Source: a phage. Taken from it: 47,149 nucleotides of DNA. The notes under the pieces are model-generated. The model was not told the DNA's origin. It ran no database searches and saw nothing but the letters and a program-made list of their open reading frames with translations. The DNA is taken from sequence record PZ445406.1; one strand, given 5' to 3'. Shown here one piece after another: positions 6,628 to 45,064 of the stretch (its first letter is position 1; each line of letters begins with the position of its first letter). The position numbers and the translations under genes were made by a program.

Positions 6628-6671
6628 CATAGCACTTTTTGATAAAGCGTTAATTCAATCTTCCTGTATAG
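6628..6671 (+). promoter_or_regulatory. phage-type promoter module
   Basis: ATAGCAC-N4-TTGATA, 22-bp spacer, TATAGT; leader CATCTAAACGAAA follows. Confidence 0.5.
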
Positions 6672-18342: not shown

Positions 18343-18386
18343 ATGATAACTCATCCCTGCGGATTGTCTTTAGCAATTCGTGCTAT
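18343..18386 (-). promoter_or_regulatory. phage-type promoter module (drives lipoprotein gene)
   Basis: Minus strand ATAGCACGAATTGCTA, 22-bp spacer, TATCAT, leader CCACATCGAAACGAG. Confidence 0.5.
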
Positions 18387-19059
18387 TTGCAATGAAAACC
18401 GCCCTTGCGAATCCTCTCGGTGTAAGACTGCGGACTACCTTCGTTTTCTTACTCTTACCGCCTAGCTTCTTGTATTGGTCTGAGAATCCGTCATTAACAG
18501 GCACGGGAATAGCATCAGGCCATTTAAACCCATTGCCAGACCAAATACATGTCTTCTTAGGATATGCGTCGCGAGGCTTTATTAGGTCGCTAAAAAACGG
18601 GTGTAAATCATCTTCCGGCAAATAGCCTCCGTATTCGTAAGGGTGGAAAGTGTTATCAGGCTTTCGCCAAAGTGATGAAAGTACGCTTATCGGGTTCTCA
18701 ATCATGTATGGCACTTGGTACTTATTAGCCAGGTTAAAGGCAACTTTACACGCTTCAGCAGCTTCAATTTGGAAATTGGGGTTAGCAAGGCGCTTGCGCT
18801 CAAAGTGTCTTGACCCGCTCACCGCTAAATCCGTACAGGGCGGGAATGCCAAAATGAAATCAGGCTTCACATTAAAATCGAAGTCAGCATCTATCCATGC
18901 GTTAACATAGGTGATGTTGTGATGCTCAACCTTTGCATTTAAGTCACCGTAGCTCCCATGGTCAGAATCATCAAAGTTGAAACAGTAGCAAGTGTGACCA
19001 GCTTCAGCCCAATCTTTCACCGCAAGACCAGAGCCATCAAATAAAGACCAGATAACCAT
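18370..19059 (-). CDS. DNA cytosine-C5 methyltransferase-like protein
   Basis: Motif I-like LFDGSG, motif IV-like FPPCT, motif VI-like ENP; GAGAGGA SD. Confidence 0.45.
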   Translation of the reverse strand: MVIWSLFDGSGLAVKDWAEAGHTCYCFNFDDSDHGSYGDLNAKVEHHNITYVNAWIDADFDFNVKPDFILAFPPCTDLAVSGSRHFERKRLANPNFQIEAAEACKVAFNLANKYQVPYMIENPISVLSSLWRKPDNTFHPYEYGGYLPEDDLHPFFSDLIKPRDAYPKKTCIWSGNGFKWPDAIPVPVNDGFSDQYKKLGGKSKKTKVVRSLTPRGFARAVFIANSTNC

Positions 19060-19442
19060 TTTACAATCCTCTCTCGTTGTTTGTGCGACTAACTATACCA
19101 GGTTTTGCGTCTGAGTTTTAGCTATTCGTGCTATTGCATACACGTAACAGATGTAACTTGATGTATACAATCTAATCCGCGGAAAATGATATACGCCAAG
19201 TTACGCATGGTTACGCTATATTTACATTAAAATATCTATATATATCAACCATTTACTCTTATTATTATTATTATATATATTACTGTGTATATCATGTAAC
19301 TACCTCTATAGAGTGTTCCGGTTGCAATTTTAATATCATGTGGATTTATACAGTGTTGCACGGTGCTATACCAATGCACCCTCAGCAATAAATGATATAC
19401 ACGATATACACACTAGTTACATTGAGCTATAGCTGATCTGAG
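19060..19442. repeat. AT-rich divergent control region A with iterons and (TTA)5 microsatellite
   Basis: No credible ORF; tandem GATATACAC x2 at 19394-19411; (TTA)5 at 19259-19273; 19-mer ATATCTATATATATCAACC at 19232-19250 shared with region B. Confidence 0.6.
19092..19134 (-). promoter_or_regulatory. phage-type promoter module (leftward from region A)
   Basis: Minus strand ATAGCACGAATAGCTA, 21-22 bp spacer, TATAGT. Confidence 0.5.
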
Positions 19443-19787
19443 GTGCCAGAAAACGTAACTAGTGGCAATGCATACATGGAATTACAAGAATTCACACGTA
19501 AACTTAATAAATTGATAGGCACAAACGATTGGATTCCAGCAAGCCACGCGGATATAGTTAACCCATCGAAAGCAAGCAACCAAATAGATACGAAAATGGG
19601 AAAGAAAATAGATAGATACTCAGCTCACACCGTAATACTACCCAGCTATGCTCCGGTTTTTATTGGTGTAACTTACGAAGTGGCTCTTAGATTATGCGAG
19701 TCATCATATGGTAAAGACTGGAAAAACAAATCAATTAGAATAGAGAAGACAACTAGAGAACATATCAAAATCATCGCGGGGGTATAA
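19443..19787 (+). CDS. hypothetical protein
   Basis: First ORF rightward of control region A; start ambiguous (GTG 19443 or ATG 19476). Confidence 0.4.
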   Translation: MPENVTSGNAYMELQEFTRKLNKLIGTNDWIPASHADIVNPSKASNQIDTKMGKKIDRYSAHTVILPSYAPVFIGVTYEVALRLCESSYGKDWKNKSIRIEKTTREHIKIIAGV

Positions 19788-21418: not shown

Positions 21419-21462
21419 ATAGCACTTTTTGTTAAAACGAAATTAATGTTTTTCGTTATAGT
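21419..21462 (+). promoter_or_regulatory. phage-type promoter module
   Basis: ATAGCAC-tttt-TTGTTA, 22-bp spacer, TATAGT; overlaps dam stop. Confidence 0.5.
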
Positions 21463-25504: not shown

Positions 25505-25522
25505 ATAGCACGATTTGCTAAA
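25505..25522. promoter_or_regulatory. isolated copy of the TAGCAC/TGCTA palindrome (operator-like)
   Basis: ATAGCACGATTTGCTAAA between primase terminator and tail fiber start, with no matching -10 at the usual spacing. Confidence 0.35.
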
Positions 25523-25546
25523 GTTGATTGTAGCATCTTTAGGGCA

Positions 25547-27036: not shown

Positions 27037-27080
27037 ATAGCATTTTTTGTTAAAAGTCATTCTGGTTTAATGGTATTATT
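27037..27080 (+). promoter_or_regulatory. phage-type promoter module (drives helicase)
   Basis: ATAGCAT-tttt-TTGTTA, 21-22 bp spacer, TATTAT. Confidence 0.45.
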
Positions 27081-27106
27081 GTAATCAATTAAACGCTACA
27101 AGACAA
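27078..27106 (-). promoter_or_regulatory. sigma70-like promoter for HTH gene 26551-27024
   Basis: Minus strand TTGTCT, 17-bp spacer, TACAAT; overlaps helicase promoter back-to-back. Confidence 0.4.
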
Positions 27107-27125: not shown

Positions 27126-29120
27126 ATGTTACCTATCGAGAAGCTGGTTGCAAACTTTGATAAAGAAAGAATTAAACAGATTCAGAAAGATTACCAGTTT
27201 GGCGAGATAACCCCTTACGAGTTCCAGTGCGTTACATTTGATGCAATTGGGAAGGCTATTGGCAAGTATGAGGCCCCATTTATCGCAGATCTTTCTGTGT
27301 CTGCTGGTAAGACAATCATTCTTGCCATGATTGGTAAGCGCATGGAGCAATTGGGATTGCCTTACATGGTTCTATCTCGCCAGTCAGAGATAATCAGCCA
27401 GAACTCAGAGGAACTTCGTAACTTCGGCATCCGTAACAGCGTATATTGCGCCGGCCTTAACGTTAAATCAGTTTATTACCCAACCATAGTTGCTAGTGAG
27501 GGCACGGCAGCCAACGGCTTGTTTAAGGGGCTTGGTGACTACGTCCCTGCAGTTATCGCAATAGACGAATGTCACATGGTCGATCACATGGATATTGTAG
27601 AAGCTGAGGAGAACGAAGAAACATTTGAGCAAATGAGCACAAAGAAAGGAGAAATGGTATTTAAAGATGGCGTTAATACCGGATTGCTTGGCACTGGTCG
27701 TGCGCAGTACACGCTAATCATCACCGAAATGAAAAGGCGATGCCGCGAGAAGTACGGTCGCGAGCTTAGAATTTTTGGCCTAACTGGCAGCCCGTATCGA
27801 AATAACGATCACATAGTGGTTAGCAATCCAAATGTTCGTGGATTCTGGCGCAAGACAGTGATTCAGGTGCCAACTAATTACCTTGTTGATTTGGGATTTG
27901 TTGTGCCTACTGTTTATGGCGAGGTTGGCGATTTGGGTTACGATCTTAGTGAGTTTGTGCCCGATGGGAACGATGGCGTGAAGGACTTTGGCAAGAAAGA
28001 AATGGATGCAATGGAAGAGAAAATCCACCAAAGCCAATCCATGACGCAAAAGATTATGCAATTTGCTGCAAAGTTCATGGAGACTCGTAACTCGGCTCTT
28101 GTGACATGTTCTGGTAAGCGTCACTGCGAGGAAGCGGCAGCGTCGCTTCCTGATGGTGTGACATGGGCTATAGTAACTGACTCTACAGGTGAGAAAAAGC
28201 GCCGTGAGATTCTGGCTGATGCATATGAAGGTAAGTATAAATTCATATTTCAGATAGGTTGCCTCACAACCGGCGTTAACGTTCCACCATGGGATACATC
28301 AATCATTCTGCGCAAAGTTGGTAGTATCACGCTTCTTATTCAGCTTTTGGGTAGAGGAATGCGAATTCTTAAGAAGAAGCATAAGGAAATGGGAATGGTT
28401 AAGGATGATCACGTGGTGCTTGACTTTGCTGGTACTCTTGATGACATGGCAGAATTGTACTTTGACCCAATCATAGAAGAAGTTCAGGACCAGAAGTTCA
28501 AATCGTCACGAAAAAGTGGCGACAATCCAAGGGTATGTCCTGCCTGCGGCTATGAGAACTCTCCTTTTGCTCGTCGCTGCAATAACGTAATTGATGGGAA
28601 ACGTTGTGAGCATTTTTTTAAATTTCGCTTGTGCGAAGACATAGAGGACCAGCAGACAAAAGTTACTATTAAGAAAGGTTGTGGTGAGAAGAATGATATT
28701 GCCGCTAAAAACTGCAGGTGCTGTGGCGAGATGCTTATTGACCCTAACGCAAAGTTGTCTGGAAAGATGTATCGACAAGGGGATTGGTTGAGAGTTTACG
28801 GATTCAGTATTGGGTTAACTAAAAACCAAACCGGAATCGTTGCTCGATATGAAATCATGGCTCACAGCGGGGATAGGTTTGTTGCTTACGAAACTTTCTT
28901 TCCAGAGAGTGATCATCGCGTCTGCTCTGTAAAGTGGAAGGCGTTTTGCCAAACCCACATCGCCAACAAAACAGAAGCATTTCGCATCGGAAGACTTCGA
29001 AACACTAAAATGATTATGACCAATGCAAGTCAATTCCGTGAACCTATGAGAGTGACGCACAGAAAAAACCAGAAAGGTCAGGATATTATCGCAAATAAAT
29101 CTTTTACTATGGAGGATTGA
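27126..29120 (+). CDS. SF2 DNA helicase with C-terminal zinc ribbons
   Basis: Walker A-like SAGKT, DECH box, multiple CxxC pairs at C-terminus. Confidence 0.65.
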   Translation: MLPIEKLVANFDKERIKQIQKDYQFGEITPYEFQCVTFDAIGKAIGKYEAPFIADLSVSAGKTIILAMIGKRMEQLGLPYMVLSRQSEIISQNSEELRNFGIRNSVYCAGLNVKSVYYPTIVASEGTAANGLFKGLGDYVPAVIAIDECHMVDHMDIVEAEENEETFEQMSTKKGEMVFKDGVNTGLLGTGRAQYTLIITEMKRRCREKYGRELRIFGLTGSPYRNNDHIVVSNPNVRGFWRKTVIQVPTNYLVDLGFVVPTVYGEVGDLGYDLSEFVPDGNDGVKDFGKKEMDAMEEKIHQSQSMTQKIMQFAAKFMETRNSALVTCSGKRHCEEAAASLPDGVTWAIVTDSTGEKKRREILADAYEGKYKFIFQIGCLTTGVNVPPWDTSIILRKVGSITLLIQLLGRGMRILKKKHKEMGMVKDDHVVLDFAGTLDDMAELYFDPIIEEVQDQKFKSSRKSGDNPRVCPACGYENSPFARRCNNVIDGKRCEHFFKFRLCEDIEDQQTKVTIKKGCGEKNDIAAKNCRCCGEMLIDPNAKLSGKMYRQGDWLRVYGFSIGLTKNQTGIVARYEIMAHSGDRFVAYETFFPESDHRVCSVKWKAFCQTHIANKTEAFRIGRLRNTKMIMTNASQFREPMRVTHRKNQKGQDIIANKSFTMED

Positions 29121-29863: not shown

Positions 29864-29907
29864 ATAGCACGAATTGCTAAACTATGACGCATGGAAGCGT
29901 GTATTAT
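29864..29907 (+). promoter_or_regulatory. phage-type promoter module (duplicated copy)
   Basis: ATAGCACGAATTGCTA, 22-bp spacer, TATTAT. Confidence 0.55.
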
Positions 29908-34417: not shown

Positions 34418-36001
34418 TCACCCCAGCAATCTCGGATTAATATAAACTTTATCACCAATCAGGCACGTATAGTTTTTCTCATCAAGCATTGGCAGTAAGT
34501 GATCTTTAATCTTCGTCATCACCCCAGCCTGAGCCTCGAACGGCTTAACCTTGCGCGCTGCCTCATACAATGAACGAACACCAACAACTCCCTTACCGTT
34601 TTTGCCTTGCTTGATCAGGATATCAATAAGCTTATTCATCTCGGCATTGTCTCCAGCGTGACCCGCAGCGTTGGCAGATGATAGATACGTCTTGCTCAGC
34701 TCCTGGAACATAATTACTGCCTCTTGCATGGTGTCTAGCTCAATCTCTCTTGACTTCTGTGGACTTCCACCGTTAGGGTTGAACCAGTTACGCACAGTGT
34801 GAAGAACCGCTGCAATCCTGATGGCCTGTTTATCGAACTTCCCCAACGCGCCGCGCAACATTGTGTGGGAATACTTACCGCCGTCAGCAAGGTGAGGTTC
34901 CATTTCCTGACGAGCGCGGTTTAGGTATTTCATTGCTGAATTACTCACTGTCAACTTTACTTCTTGCTCGTTCATTATTTCGTGAACCAATCGGAAGTAG
35001 TCAGCCTTCAACCCGCCATCAATTGGTTCATAAGTCGATTCGCCATTTTCATCAACGAATACACGCTCACCCAGGAATGACTTTTCACGAACCAAAAGGA
35101 AACGTTCAGATACACCGATACCGCGCGCACCAGCATTCATGATTGCGTTAATTGTTTCGTCTTGCGCAATTACAGAGATGCAGCCCATAGCAACGAAGCT
35201 CATGTTGTTCTCTGCGTTCGCACGGGCGATAGATACGTTACCAGCATCCCATGCTTTAAGCACAAGCTCGCTGTTCGTTTTCTTTGAGCCATCGCCATAC
35301 GTCATGCCAAGAAGTGAATTCACGCTCGTTGCTTCATCCGAGATTACTGCGAAGTTTCCCTGGCGGTTGTTTATTCGGGCCAAGCCTTCAGGCGTAGTGT
35401 CTGATACGGGGAAAACGATATCGCAAAGTTTCTCGAGCTTCTCCTCTAAATCTTCTTTTTCCTCAAATAGTGAAGCCATCTCTGACGGAGATTTTTCCTG
35501 CTTCATCTCTTTGGATAATGCAGATAGTTTGGCCATGATCTTTTTACGCTCACGCTTTCGCACTTCATTCAGTCGCTCAGTCTCGGCAATCATTGGAGCA
35601 ATTGAAAGTGAGTTAATAGCTGATTTACCAGTAGATGGTGGCTGGCTTGTTACGACGTAAAGCGACGTGGGCTGCTGAGTTCCGTGATACTCTACAGTGA
35701 ATCGACCAAGCATAGCAGCGGAAATACACCCCAGGAAGTGCATGTAAGCTGAAGATTCAGGGAACTGAACCGAACGAGCAATGTTGGCTGACAGTTTACC
35801 AACAACATCAATATCATTTCCTAGTGAGATTACAGGATACTTGTCATTGGCAGCGTCAATCTCTACTGGCGCCTTCCAGAATGATTGGGACTGTCGATAG
35901 CCATTAGCATTGATGGCGACACGCAAAGGCGGGAGGTTGTCTGCGGCAGCGATTGCCATAACCTGTTCAACAGATAGTTTATCTTCGTTGAAATCAAACA
36001 T
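34418..36001 (-). CDS. P-loop ATPase (possible replication helicase-like protein)
   Basis: Walker A-like PPSTGKS and Walker B-like VISDEA; coiled-coil insert; termini shared with 39187-39714 protein. Confidence 0.5.
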   Translation of the reverse strand: MFDFNEDKLSVEQVMAIAAADNLPPLRVAINANGYRQSQSFWKAPVEIDAANDKYPVISLGNDIDVVGKLSANIARSVQFPESSAYMHFLGCISAAMLGRFTVEYHGTQQPTSLYVVTSQPPSTGKSAINSLSIAPMIAETERLNEVRKRERKKIMAKLSALSKEMKQEKSPSEMASLFEEKEDLEEKLEKLCDIVFPVSDTTPEGLARINNRQGNFAVISDEATSVNSLLGMTYGDGSKKTNSELVLKAWDAGNVSIARANAENNMSFVAMGCISVIAQDETINAIMNAGARGIGVSERFLLVREKSFLGERVFVDENGESTYEPIDGGLKADYFRLVHEIMNEQEVKLTVSNSAMKYLNRARQEMEPHLADGGKYSHTMLRGALGKFDKQAIRIAAVLHTVRNWFNPNGGSPQKSREIELDTMQEAVIMFQELSKTYLSSANAAGHAGDNAEMNKLIDILIKQGKNGKGVVGVRSLYEAARKVKPFEAQAGVMTKIKDHLLPMLDEKNYTCLIGDKVYINPRLLG

Positions 36002-37006: not shown

Positions 37007-37242
37007 TTCACCTCGTCAAAAGTTGCAATACCAGGGATAAACATTCCAACCTTCCAGCGCGCAATGGCAATCCACCCAGAATCGTGCTTGTGAGGTCGCT
37101 CAGCGCCATTAATCAACCACTCGTTCGGGATTGTCTTGCCGTTAATGATTAGCGGCTCAGCGTCGTATACACAGCCTTTAACGAATGGCGTTAAGACTTT
37201 TTTGTCGGTGCTGGTAATAACATTGGTGCAGCGAATTTTCAT
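37003..37242 (-). CDS. hypothetical protein
   Basis: 79-aa ORF. Confidence 0.45.
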   Translation of the reverse strand: MKIRCTNVITSTDKKVLTPFVKGCVYDAEPLIINGKTIPNEWLINGAERPHKHDSGWIAIARWKVGMFIPGIATFDEVK

Positions 37243-37412
37243 TGCACCACCTCAAACTCATCAGGGTGAATAACAAGTGGCTTACCACTCCCATCAATAA
37301 TTACCACTCTACCATCGCCACACTCATTTAATACCGCGTAGACTCCACCAATCTCAATCCCGTAATAACATGGCGTGTAAATCGTATCAAACTTAACTAA
37401 CTTAATTTTCAT
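37239..37412 (-). CDS. hypothetical 57-aa protein
   Basis: GAGGA SD; ATGA overlap with next gene; not in ORF track. Confidence 0.35.
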   Translation of the reverse strand: MKIKLVKFDTIYTPCYYGIEIGGVYAVLNECGDGRVVIIDGSGKPLVIHPDEFEVVQ

Positions 37413-37422
37413 ATCTCAATCC

Positions 37423-37599
37423 TCAAAATGGTAAGCATTCAGTGCAGCCGAGGCCGTCACAACAGAAAAACTCATCCTCTGACTGGAATTGCTTGGCTAA
37501 ATCTATATCCAGTTTTCCACGAACCACAAGGTCGGTGTAATCTTCATTAAGCCCAATCAGTGCACATTCGTGGCGTAGCACGTCTTTTCTGTTCATCAT
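37423..37599 (-). CDS. hypothetical 58-aa Cys-rich protein
   Basis: GGAG SD; CCDGLGCTEC cluster; not in ORF track. Confidence 0.35.
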   Translation of the reverse strand: MMNRKDVLRHECALIGLNEDYTDLVVRGKLDIDLAKQFQSEDEFFCCDGLGCTECLPF

Positions 37600-37931: not shown

Positions 37932-37964
37932 TTATTTCTCCTTTCCTCTCGTTTCTAGGACTGA

Positions 37965-38009
37965 ATCATAGCAACCAACCACTGATAGGTCATTAGCAAA
38001 AAGTGCTAT
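37965..38009 (-). promoter_or_regulatory. phage-type promoter module (leftward from region B)
   Basis: Minus strand ATAGCAC-tttt-TGCTAA, 22-bp spacer, TATGAT. Confidence 0.5.
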
Positions 38010-38569
38010 TCGTTAGATTTATGGATTGTTGCAGATATTGAAATTATTATCATGATTATTGCACATATAGCAATATTGCTTCAGATGCAATGATGTTTTT
38101 GATTGTTGCGGATTGAGCAATGAAGTGGTGGGGGAGTGAATGAAAGATGGATGGACTAACATACAAGTTGATTTTGACTCCCGATAACCTATCCTGTGGT
38201 ATACACGTAACCGCCGTATACTCAGTGTCGTCACAAAAGTTAGTGGACACTAACCTACGTTTTTTACGCCAATATACACTCGATATACAATATAATATCT
38301 ATATATATCAACCTTTTACTTTATTATTATTATTATTATTATATATATGTATACCGTGTATACCGGTCATGGATGGAATAGTTGATATGTTCCGCGCAGA
38401 TATTCTGACACTTGTCAGAAAGGGATGACATTGTAGGAATAAAAAGGCACATATATAGGAAATATCCTCAAAAATCTGTACACAGTGGATACGGCAGGTT
38501 TACAACCAGTGCCGGAGCGGGCTTGAGAGGCAAAATGCGTATCCATGATAAAATATACTAAAATATACA

Positions 38570-38598
38570 TTGACCGACACGTAAATAGGTGGCAATAT
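38570..38598 (+). promoter_or_regulatory. sigma70-like promoter (rightward from region B)
   Basis: TTGACC, 17-18 bp spacer, CAATAT/AATATA; leader CACTGAAACGAAG follows. Confidence 0.4.
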
Positions 38599-38638
38599 AG
38601 CAATCACTGAAACGAAGTAAACCAAACGAGGTATTAAC

Positions 38639-39187: not shown

Positions 39188-39714
39188 TGTTTGATTTCAA
39201 CGAAGAAAAGCTGACAGATGAGCAGGTCATGAGTATTGCGAAGCAGGATGGGATTCCCCCGCTACGGGTTGCAATCAATGCAAACGGGTATCGTCATGTT
39301 CAACACCTCTGGAGTCATCCTGATGCGTCATCAATCCACAAGGGTGAGGCTGTTGAGGTTCTGCTGACAGCGATAAGGACTGAATCTATAGCTCGCAGGG
39401 GAGTTGTTGGCTTACAGAAGTCTTATGACCTAATTAGGAAGCTAAAGAGGTTTAAAGGTGACAATGACGGGCTAATGGAGAGGATTAAGGACGAAATGAT
39501 TCCAGAGCTAGAGAAAGCGAATCTCGTTTGCCTCATTGGAGATAAGATTTATGTCCACCCGGCTATCATTGAGGAGTCCTGGCAACCCAACTTCAAAACT
39601 TACGAAGGTGATCACACTAGTAGACTACCATACCACTTGCGGTACAGTGAGGCGGAGGTGGAAGAGGCTATTGAGTTCTACCGGAAGACTAAATCACTCC
39701 TGAATGGCGAATAG
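39187..39714 (+). CDS. hypothetical protein sharing N- and C-termini with the 34418-36001 ATPase
   Basis: First ~40 aa and last ~30 aa align with the 527-aa protein; central domain absent. Confidence 0.5.
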   Translation: MFDFNEEKLTDEQVMSIAKQDGIPPLRVAINANGYRHVQHLWSHPDASSIHKGEAVEVLLTAIRTESIARRGVVGLQKSYDLIRKLKRFKGDNDGLMERIKDEMIPELEKANLVCLIGDKIYVHPAIIEESWQPNFKTYEGDHTSRLPYHLRYSEAEVEEAIEFYRKTKSLLNGE

Positions 39715-39754
39715 CACGAATTGCTAAACAATGGATCGGGTAGTCAGCTATGAT
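39711..39754 (+). promoter_or_regulatory. phage-type promoter module
   Basis: ATAGCACGAATTGCTA, 22-bp spacer, TATGAT. Confidence 0.5.
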
Positions 39755-41054: not shown

Positions 41055-41098
41055 ATAGCACGAATTGCTAAACCAGCTCCGGCGGGTTCTGTTATAGT
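41055..41098 (+). promoter_or_regulatory. phage-type promoter module
   Basis: ATAGCACGAATTGCTA, 22-bp spacer, TATAGT. Confidence 0.55.
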
Positions 41099-44553: not shown

Positions 44554-44557
44554 TGAC

Positions 44558-45064
44558 ATGAGCAAAGCAGCATTAAAGATGGGTGAGGGAAATTTCAAGG
44601 CACTCTACAACAAGAAGTATGGCGATATTGCTATGGTGGCAATCAACCGTAAGTATACGCCTGAGGAGGTTTTCGATTTCGCAGTGAGATACTTCTCCTG
44701 GGCTGAGGGTGAGGCAATTAAAGCCATTGAGACGGCGGCATTCCGGGGTGTGGTTAGTGAGAGCTTAGTGCACAAGCCTAGAGTGTTCACATTAACCGGC
44801 CTGGCACTATTCATGGGTGTTAACATCAATAGATTCGCTCGTTGGCGTGCTGAGGCTGGATACTCTGACGTGATGGAATTCATTGATAACGTAATCTACG
44901 AACAGAAATATCAGCTCTGCGTTGCAGGCATTATCAACTCCACCATTGTTGGTAAAGAGCTTGGCATTGATAAGCCGCAGGAGATCACCATTAGCAACAA
45001 CTCCACAGCCAACGACGTTGATAGCATGAAGGAAGCGCTTGAGTCTGTTATTGGTAAGTTGTAG
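44558..45064 (+). CDS. terminase small subunit (putative)
   Basis: 168 aa; position upstream of terL with an HNH gene between; call by synteny only. Confidence 0.45.
   Translation: MSKAALKMGEGNFKALYNKKYGDIAMVAINRKYTPEEVFDFAVRYFSWAEGEAIKAIETAAFRGVVSESLVHKPRVFTLTGLALFMGVNINRFARWRAEAGYSDVMEFIDNVIYEQKYQLCVAGIINSTIVGKELGIDKPQEITISNNSTANDVDSMKEALESVIGKL

Follow-up and report, generated by a model that had tools for sequence, protein, structure and literature searches.

The replication origins of SaPI elements consist of 6–12 iterons of 5–6 nt and a central AT-rich region, with at least two iterons on each side of it in opposite orientation. They are read by the C-terminal winged-helix domain (WHD) of a self-loading SF3 or MCM-like helicase-initiator, and the iteron words are element-specific. 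In the SaPI/PICI origins (SaPI1, SaPIbov1/SaPI2 and SaPI5, with the related SCCmec Cch), the primase is either separate or fused. Two separated regions that share initiator-binding repeats beside AT-rich DNA occur in Bacillus phage SPP1 (oriL/oriR) and in satellite P4 (ori/crr). SPP1 is, like T1, a pac-type siphovirus, while crr of P4 is an auxiliary site and not a second origin. With origins of the T4/T7 type, a single genome can carry several combinations of a promoter and an AT tract.

Phage T1 belongs to the seven classical T phages. Its relatives are abundant among coliphages, are considered for therapy and are notorious as contaminants of laboratories. According to recent genome papers on T1-like phages, no origin could be found, and a literature search of our own retrieved neither an origin for the T1 family nor early promoters nor transcript maps. 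Here, we describe a non-coding locus of a phage of the same family, designated region A. It is a composite control region, whose edges are ordinary promoters and leaders, whose core (approximately positions 19138–19300) is one of two paralogous modules, and whose satellite repeat copies extend to position 19501. Judging from the sequence, the most likely function of this core module, at about even odds, is that of a replication origin, of which a second copy would lie at 38.2–38.36 kb.

Genome context of region A

The window, i.e. the whole stretch of DNA that was analyzed (47,149 bp), comprises the entire genome of Escherichia phage JeanPiccard (Bas02, MZ501080.1; Drexlerviridae, Braunvirinae). 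Relative to the GenBank record it is rotated, and window numbering equals the record coordinate minus 2592. Position 1 of the record, at which the small terminase gene starts, falls at window position 44558, the junction being at 44557/44558, and the window ends are not biological ends.

Region A is bordered on one side by a leftward gene for a Dcm-like methyltransferase (start at 19059) and on the other by rightward genes, which continue to exonuclease VIII (exoVIII), a Dam-like methylase, an Erf-like recombinase and SSB. The genes directly adjoining the module are Dcm and a 63-aa ORF. An earlier note on this DNA had described an AT-rich gap between divergent operons, which is borne out by a G+C content of 33.9% in the gap and 10.9% in its core tract, compared to 44.5% for the genome. 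Two sequence elements reported in the same note were also found as described: the tandem GATATACAC repeats at 19394–19411 (19394–19402 and 19403–19411), and the (TTA)5(TA)n tract, composed of (TTA)5 at 19259–19273 followed by (TA)3 at 19274–19279. The second region considered here, region B (37932–38638), is flanked by a leftward block of small genes ending with the DUF3987 helicase gene, and by rightward small early-type genes running into the terminase genes.

The gene for the Dcm-like methyltransferase, together with its own promoter (18370–19134), is an insertion common to AugustePiccard. In most relatives, a Cor-like lipoprotein gene directly adjoins region A. Homology with the relatives lacking Dcm begins exactly at the promoter of this gene.

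Promoters flanking the conserved core

A family-wide repeat of 21 nt (DR) has been described for phages TLS, T1, Rtp and Rogue1. A pattern search of the JeanPiccard genome detected 21 copies of this repeat, against 2.3 expected. The copies share the pattern ATAGCACnnnTTGnTAAAR, in which TTGnTA is located ∼22 nt from the −10 element, and they are followed by a −10 element 18–20 nt downstream and by a common leader. The sites include 6629–6647, 19116–19134 (minus strand), 21419–21437, 29864–29882, 39711–39729 and 41055–41073. One of them belongs to the Dcm gene (Table 1), and positions 19060–19134 are, by these sequence features, an ordinary promoter and leader for this gene.

The marbox consensus of MarA, SoxS and Rob is AYnGCACnnWnnRYYAAAY, and class II marboxes are in forward orientation, overlap the −35 region and are centred between −36 and −55. 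When at most one mismatch was allowed, 15 matches to this consensus were found (0.88 expected), 13 of which are DR elements. The DR element also has the geometry of a class II marbox, since it is in forward orientation, overlaps the −35 region and precedes the −10 element by 18–20 nt. These similarities suggest that most operons of T1-like phages may use a host activator of the Rob/MarA/SoxS type, or a phage mimic. If the marbox-like repeat is real, the transcription of T1-like phages would for the most part be linked to a host stress regulator; a literature search retrieved no paper linking marboxes to T1-like phages. One orphan DR/marbox copy (25505–25523, plus strand) is located between two minus-strand genes, encoding the lateral tail fibre and the primase, and is accompanied by a terminator-like hairpin instead of a −10 element and leader.

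At the opposite edge of region A, positions 19529–19595 comprise the predicted rightward promoter and leader for the operon of the small ORF and exonuclease VIII. All Braunvirinae share its TATAGT hexamer (19553), the leader TAACCCATCGAAAGCAA and the ATG at 19596, and at the equivalent position T1, KarlJaspers and ETEP102 carry the near-consensus sequence TTGACT-N16-TATAAT/TACAAT/TATAGT. Between 19443 and 19595 the relatives contain indels that are not multiples of three (1 nt in 12210I, larger in ETEP102 and XT34), and therefore the annotated GTG start of bas02_0027 at 19443 is probably wrong. From these alignments, the true start is probably ATG 19596, giving a 63-aa product. The gap that had been described as 380 bp long (19060–19442) is thus present, but the non-coding stretch probably reaches 19595 and measures ∼536 bp. 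As both flanking operons have promoters of their own, the conserved DNA that separates these promoters (∼400 bp) must be explained in some other way.

A conventional promoter (TTGTCT-N17-TACAAT; 27078–27106, minus strand) was also identified for bas02_0036, a Cro-like HTH gene located just upstream of the primase gene. It lies back to back with the DR promoter of bas02_0037 (27126–29120), encoding the 664-aa helicase, and the gap between these two genes forms the third divergent node of the genome.

Table 1. Positions of features in region A, in module B and of the DUF3987 gene (window coordinates)
Feature	Position	Strand	Sequence and remarks
DR promoter for Dcm	19092–19134	−	DR ATAGCACGAATAGCTAAAA, 19134 to 19116; −10 TATAGT, 19097 to 19092
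Dcm leader	19091 to ATG 19059	−	
Outer repeat group (19138–19166), pair	+19138 / −19147	+ / −	palindromic pair ATACACGTAA
Outer repeat group (19138–19166), leftward copies	19156, 19166	−	TTACAT 19156, ATACAT 19166; leftward; spacing 9–10 bp
Left array	19191–19227	+	four WTACRY: ATACGC 19191, TTACGC 19201, TTACGC 19211, TTACAT 19222
AT tract	19228–19282		55 bp, 11% G+C
IHF core consensus	19243–19255		TATCAACCATTTA; consensus match, within AT tract
Predicted −35	19252–19257		TTTACT; within AT tract
Predicted −10	19276–19281		TATATT; within AT tract
Right array	19285–19299	−	two copies, toward AT tract: ATACAC 19290 to 19285, TTACAT 19299 to 19294
Tandem GATATACAC ×2 and AGTTACAT	19394–19422	+	three rightward copies: 19397, 19406, 19417
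Further repeat copies	19452–19501	+ and −	−19458, +19472, −19501
Proximal promoter	19529–19558	+	TTGGAT-N18-TATAGT; with leader TAACCCATCGAAAGCAA and conserved ATG 19596
bas02_0053	34418–36001	−	DUF3987 MCM-like helicase; C-terminal winged helix, residues 451–527
Module B	38201–38361		ATACACGTAAC pair 38201–38210; rightward copies 38264, 38274; leftward copies 38352, 38361
AT tract of module B	38291–38347		IHF consensus 38306; (TTA)7

Repeat arrays around two AT tracts

The tandem GATATACAC repeats are part of a family of at least 13 six-base repeats, WTACRY (covering ATACAC, ATACGC, TTACGC, TTACAT and similar words), spaced 9–11 bp. The additional GTATAC-type copies mentioned in the earlier note do exist, although the family to which they belong is larger than was described there. 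Region A contains 13 WTACRY hexamers per 300 bp, whereas the genome averages 1.45 and the highest value among 200 locally shuffled genomes was 9. It also tops the genome in local 7-mer repeat density (+5.8 SD). Six WTACRY hexamers were found in region B, and all four genomic copies of GATATACA lie within the two regions. In the window ranked second for repeat density, 37201–37500, no repeat of 12 nt or longer was detected, and it was discarded.

The repeats on either side of the AT tract have opposite orientation, point inward and are helically phased. The left array, with spacings of 10, 10 and 11 bp, adjoins the left edge of the tract. The right array adjoins the right edge and is unchanged in relatives. 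Farther out, the ATACACGTAAC pair recurs at a matching offset in region B (38201–38210), and the repeat group at 19394–19422 is kept in Braunvirinae. The segment 19452–19464 is the inverted partner of 19411–19423. An RNA stem formed by these two segments was considered and rejected: the substitutions in relatives are mostly uncompensated, and the conserved part of the arms is the repeat word. A scan of the whole window against Rfam returned tRNA only.

According to nearest-neighbour energies, the AT tracts of regions A and B are the two least stable stretches of the genome at lengths of 30, 50 and 100 bp. For 50 bp, the values were −46.3 kcal/mol in region A (the second least stable) and −45.6 kcal/mol in region B, both ∼5 SD from the genome mean (−67.6 kcal/mol, SD 4.3), and the next least stable window was at −53.6 kcal/mol. 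A match to the IHF core consensus, WATCAANNNNTTR, is present at the matching place in both tracts, with 10 such sites in the genome in total. The direct repetition of a block in region B, which had been noticed earlier, was verified: the 19-mer ATATCTATATATATCAACC is found at 19232 and at 38295, both on the plus strand, and these are its only two copies genome-wide (0.02 expected from shuffles). Local alignment delimited the block shared by the two regions to 19212–19304 and 38275–38364. The layout around the tract is in the same register in both, with four plus-strand and two minus-strand repeats in region A and two of each in region B.

Distribution of the module in related phages

The conservation of the locus was analyzed by alignment across related phages, a check that the earlier note had proposed, and the repeats were found to be conserved. 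In ten Braunvirinae, the repeat positions are 95% identical and 85% invariant, compared to 80% and 49%, respectively, for the rest of the non-coding core, and none of 393 circular shifts of the repeat mask equalled this difference. The positions that vary in Braunvirinae are the spacers between repeat units, and hardly any variation is seen in the AT tract. Conservation of the left half of region A extends to Rogunavirinae. One sub-block distinguishes the subfamilies, and in it the copies from A and B are alike within each subfamily. Some 45 bp to the left of the AT tract, the box CCGCGGAAAAT (19178–19188) shows little or no variation in Braunvirinae and Rogunavirinae, and CGCGCAAAAT-like boxes occur at a comparable offset in both modules of phage Sanco.

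A search for related loci based on a single protein retrieved close relatives only. The module is kept in five lineages of Drexlerviridae, with lineage-specific repeat words. T1 (Tunavirinae), KarlJaspers and GS166 (Tempevirinae) and Sanco (Webervirus) all have a non-coding region of 440–780 bp upstream of exoVIII, and its tract reaches −44 to −47 kcal/mol per 50 bp. The flanking repeat word is GTAAC/GTATA/ATTACGCC in T1, GAACAA in Tempevirinae and GTAAGAT in Webervirus (11 hexamer hits). T1 and Sanco also carry a second copy at the position of region B, in which their own word is oppositely oriented on the two sides.

JeanPiccard, T1 and KarlJaspers all grow on E. coli (K-12 in the case of JeanPiccard and KarlJaspers). 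Since the repeat words differ among phages sharing a host, this pattern points to a binding protein encoded by the phage, and not to sigma-70 or a different host factor, as the probable reader of the repeats. The region of Sanco is situated between co-oriented genes (in the order primase, terminator, gap, exoVIII), and therefore the module is not a by-product of divergent promoters.

The DUF3987 helicase as a candidate initiator

The phage encodes a primase with a Zn-ribbon, a DUF3987 protein (bas02_0053), a 664-aa helicase with a Helicase_C domain and a Cro-like HTH protein; no DNA polymerase was found among the phage genes. In the published view, DUF3987 proteins are MCM-like replicative helicases of phages, which belong to SF6 and carry a C-terminal wHTH. 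In agreement with this, an AlphaFold2 model of bas02_0053 (32 sequences, pLDDT 89.7) consists of an AAA+ core followed by a winged helix, and the Foldseek matches of this model were all MCMs. Sequence searches of the PDB with the helicase and with the HTH regulator gave nothing useful. On the basis of the model, bas02_0053 is a candidate for the initiator that reads the repeats. To our knowledge, the winged helices of MCMs are not sequence-specific in general, which counts against this assignment. The next gene begins 3 bp after the helicase gene, and modules B and A are 1.9 kb and 15 kb away, respectively.

In comparisons with the homologs from relatives, the winged helix was less conserved than the core, with identities of 57% versus 77% in Tempevirinae, 39% versus 73–74% in Webervirus and 46% versus 62% in T1, although the repeat words of T1 are similar. 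Co-variation of the WHD with the repeat class was set aside as a line of evidence: it is suggestive, but it is confounded by phylogeny and T1 fits poorly.

Possible functions of the modules

We infer binding, melting and initiation at the modules along the following lines. The winged-helix C-terminal domain of bas02_0053 would bind the repeats on both sides, and two hexamers would form around the (TTA)n(TA)n tract, the stretch of the genome that melts most readily. Host IHF bound at TATCAACCWTTTA could possibly assist helicase assembly or melting, and transcription from the embedded TTTACT-N18-TATATT promoter could possibly assist as well. The separate primase, bas02_0035, would then prime the host polymerase. 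In a wider form of this proposal, to which we give somewhat less than an even chance, Drexlerviridae including T1 would replicate from a pair of paralogous SaPI-like origins, located upstream of the recombination operon and beside pac, respectively. At each of them the DUF3987 protein would load itself, its winged helix reading the lineage-specific 6-nt repeats, and the promoter and IHF site would couple their firing to early transcription.

No match to the DnaA box (TTWTNCACA) was found in the whole genome and GATC sites are not clustered in region A or B, which excludes only an origin of the host type. GC skew was discarded as an origin marker, because it follows gene orientation and is uninformative. 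The earlier note had read iterons beside a melting tract as the classic make-up of a replication origin. The anatomy proved to be real and stronger than described, but the plasmid/lambda-type iteron picture does not apply to it, and part of the 383 bp in question is ordinary promoter and leader.

The same elements could form an early promoter/operator hub without any origin function, which is the main rival reading and second in likelihood to the origin. The AT tract would then be a strong early promoter for host RNAP, with an AT-rich, UP-like block upstream and an IHF site, and the WTACRY arrays would be operators for a phage regulator, e.g. the Cro-like HTH protein bas02_0036, switching two early rightward transcripts. 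A promoter within the tract was predicted not only in this analysis, but also independently by the annotators of ETEP102 and CEB_EC3a, and the distance between its hexamers is held at 18–19 nt by compensating (TTA)/(TA) changes, the tract being (TTA)4(TA)5 in ETEP102, (TTA)6(TA)2 in IME542 and (TTA)5(TA)3 in most phages. Both copies in Rogunavirinae have equivalent pairs (TTTAGA/CTTAGA-N17-TATATT/TATAGT), the right-hand repeats span +1 to +20 of the tract promoter, which is an operator-like position, and a conserved HTH regulator is present. Moreover, among the rightward operons of Braunvirinae, only the two headed by the modules have a proximal promoter without a DR element. However, the PWM score of the tract promoter (8.3) is ordinary, with 74 sites in the genome scoring at least 8 and many of the top-ranked ones located inside annotated genes. 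T1, KarlJaspers (Tempevirinae) and Sanco (Webervirus) have kept the low-stability tract but not the hexamers, the exoVIII operon has its own, often near-consensus, promoter 200–300 bp downstream, and a tract of 55 bp at 11% G+C far exceeds what a promoter requires. Folding of 19288–19595 revealed no structure signal for the putative leader RNA (z = −0.42), and on this value a structured leader or small RNA in the interval was rejected. The sigma-70 PWM scan, which did not separate the module promoters from the background, was likewise not retained as a criterion. Taken as sequence elements, the hexamers make it likely that the module includes a promoter. A role as promoter and origin at once, like that of the T4/T7 origins, would reconcile both lines of evidence.

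A role in packaging, with the arrays bound by the small terminase in the manner of SPP1 pacL/pacR, P1 pac or lambda cosB with its IHF site, appears very improbable. Terminase recognition sites typically combine arrays with an IHF site, the records of Rtp, FP, ESCO41, OzMSK and others have their ends at region B, and the annotated terminal repeat of T1 begins inside the equivalent of region B. Nevertheless, position 1 of T1 maps to a separate GATTGTTGC/TGCAAT sub-region (∼38020–38125) that region A does not have, ∼215 bp to the left of the AT tract, and together the T1 and Rtp ends fall ∼215–250 bp left of the tract of region B, in a different repeat block. No record experimentally starts at region A, which shares the module despite a distance of 19 kb, and for packaging of the T1 type a single pac site has been described as the starting point. 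Since the T1 end lies in a separate block absent from region A, pac is probably a neighbour of module B and not the module itself. An architectural role for a phage DNA-binding protein also appears improbable, whether in nucleoid or partition-like anchoring, in looping that pairs the modules (as for P4 ori/crr) or in capturing a host factor as a decoy or sink. The two copies have an identical layout 19 kb apart, and phased 10-bp arrays resemble centromere-like sites such as parC of R1; on the other hand, it is not evident why a virulent phage would need partition, and the genome revealed no gene of the ParR/ParB type.

The interval 38020–38125, in the left part of region B, contains highly conserved GATTGTTGC, TGCAAT and ATTGCA repeats. 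The T1 terminal repeat and the record starts of Rtp, OzMSK, ESCO41 and XT34 fall within it. From its sequence this interval is likely to be the pac region, distinct from the AT module ∼200 bp to the right.

Discussion

A family-wide origin candidate with a named candidate initiator makes the open question of the T1-family origin experimentally tractable. If the origin reading is true, the mechanism of a self-loading MCM-like helicase-initiator would extend from staphylococcal islands to virulent enterobacterial phages. The module would also be a cis element for engineers to keep or exploit when rebooting or minimising genomes.

Several described systems share part of the anatomy of the modules. 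As in lambda and plasmid iteron origins (lambda O, RepA/pi), where IHF sites are common, direct repeats lie beside an AT-rich unwinding element. However, the iterons of those origins are 17–22 bp long with a spacing of ∼22 bp, compared to units of 6–9 bp with a spacing of 9–11 bp in this phage, and they are often located inside or beside the initiator gene and accompanied by DnaA boxes, neither of which applies here. The association of a promoter, here a predicted one, with a very AT-rich tract recalls T4 oriF/oriG and the primary origin of T7. In those origins flanking iteron arrays are not needed and the promoter is upstream of the tract, whereas here the predicted promoter is inside it. SPP1 and P4 differ from the present case in their initiators, G38P and the C-terminal domain of P4 alpha, respectively, and in their repeat units. 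According to annotation notes, the primase part of P4 alpha is homologous to the T1-type primase.

The closest similarity is to the SaPI origins, with which modules A and B agree in every sequence-level criterion except one, adjacency to the helicase gene. The short iterons have their counterpart in the 13 WTACRY hexamers of region A and the six of region B, and both modules have a central AT tract with at least two inward-pointing iterons per side. The phage also encodes a primase and, as predicted by the structural model, an MCM-like helicase with a C-terminal winged helix. In contrast to the SaPI ori, which is located immediately downstream of rep, the modules are 1.9 kb and 15 kb from the helicase gene. 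Furthermore, there are two copies in a virulent phage instead of a single ori, and each has a predicted embedded promoter and an IHF consensus. By this analogy the modules, if they are origins, would belong to the helicase-initiator iteron class, and within it they would be unusual in their duplication and in their distance from the helicase gene.
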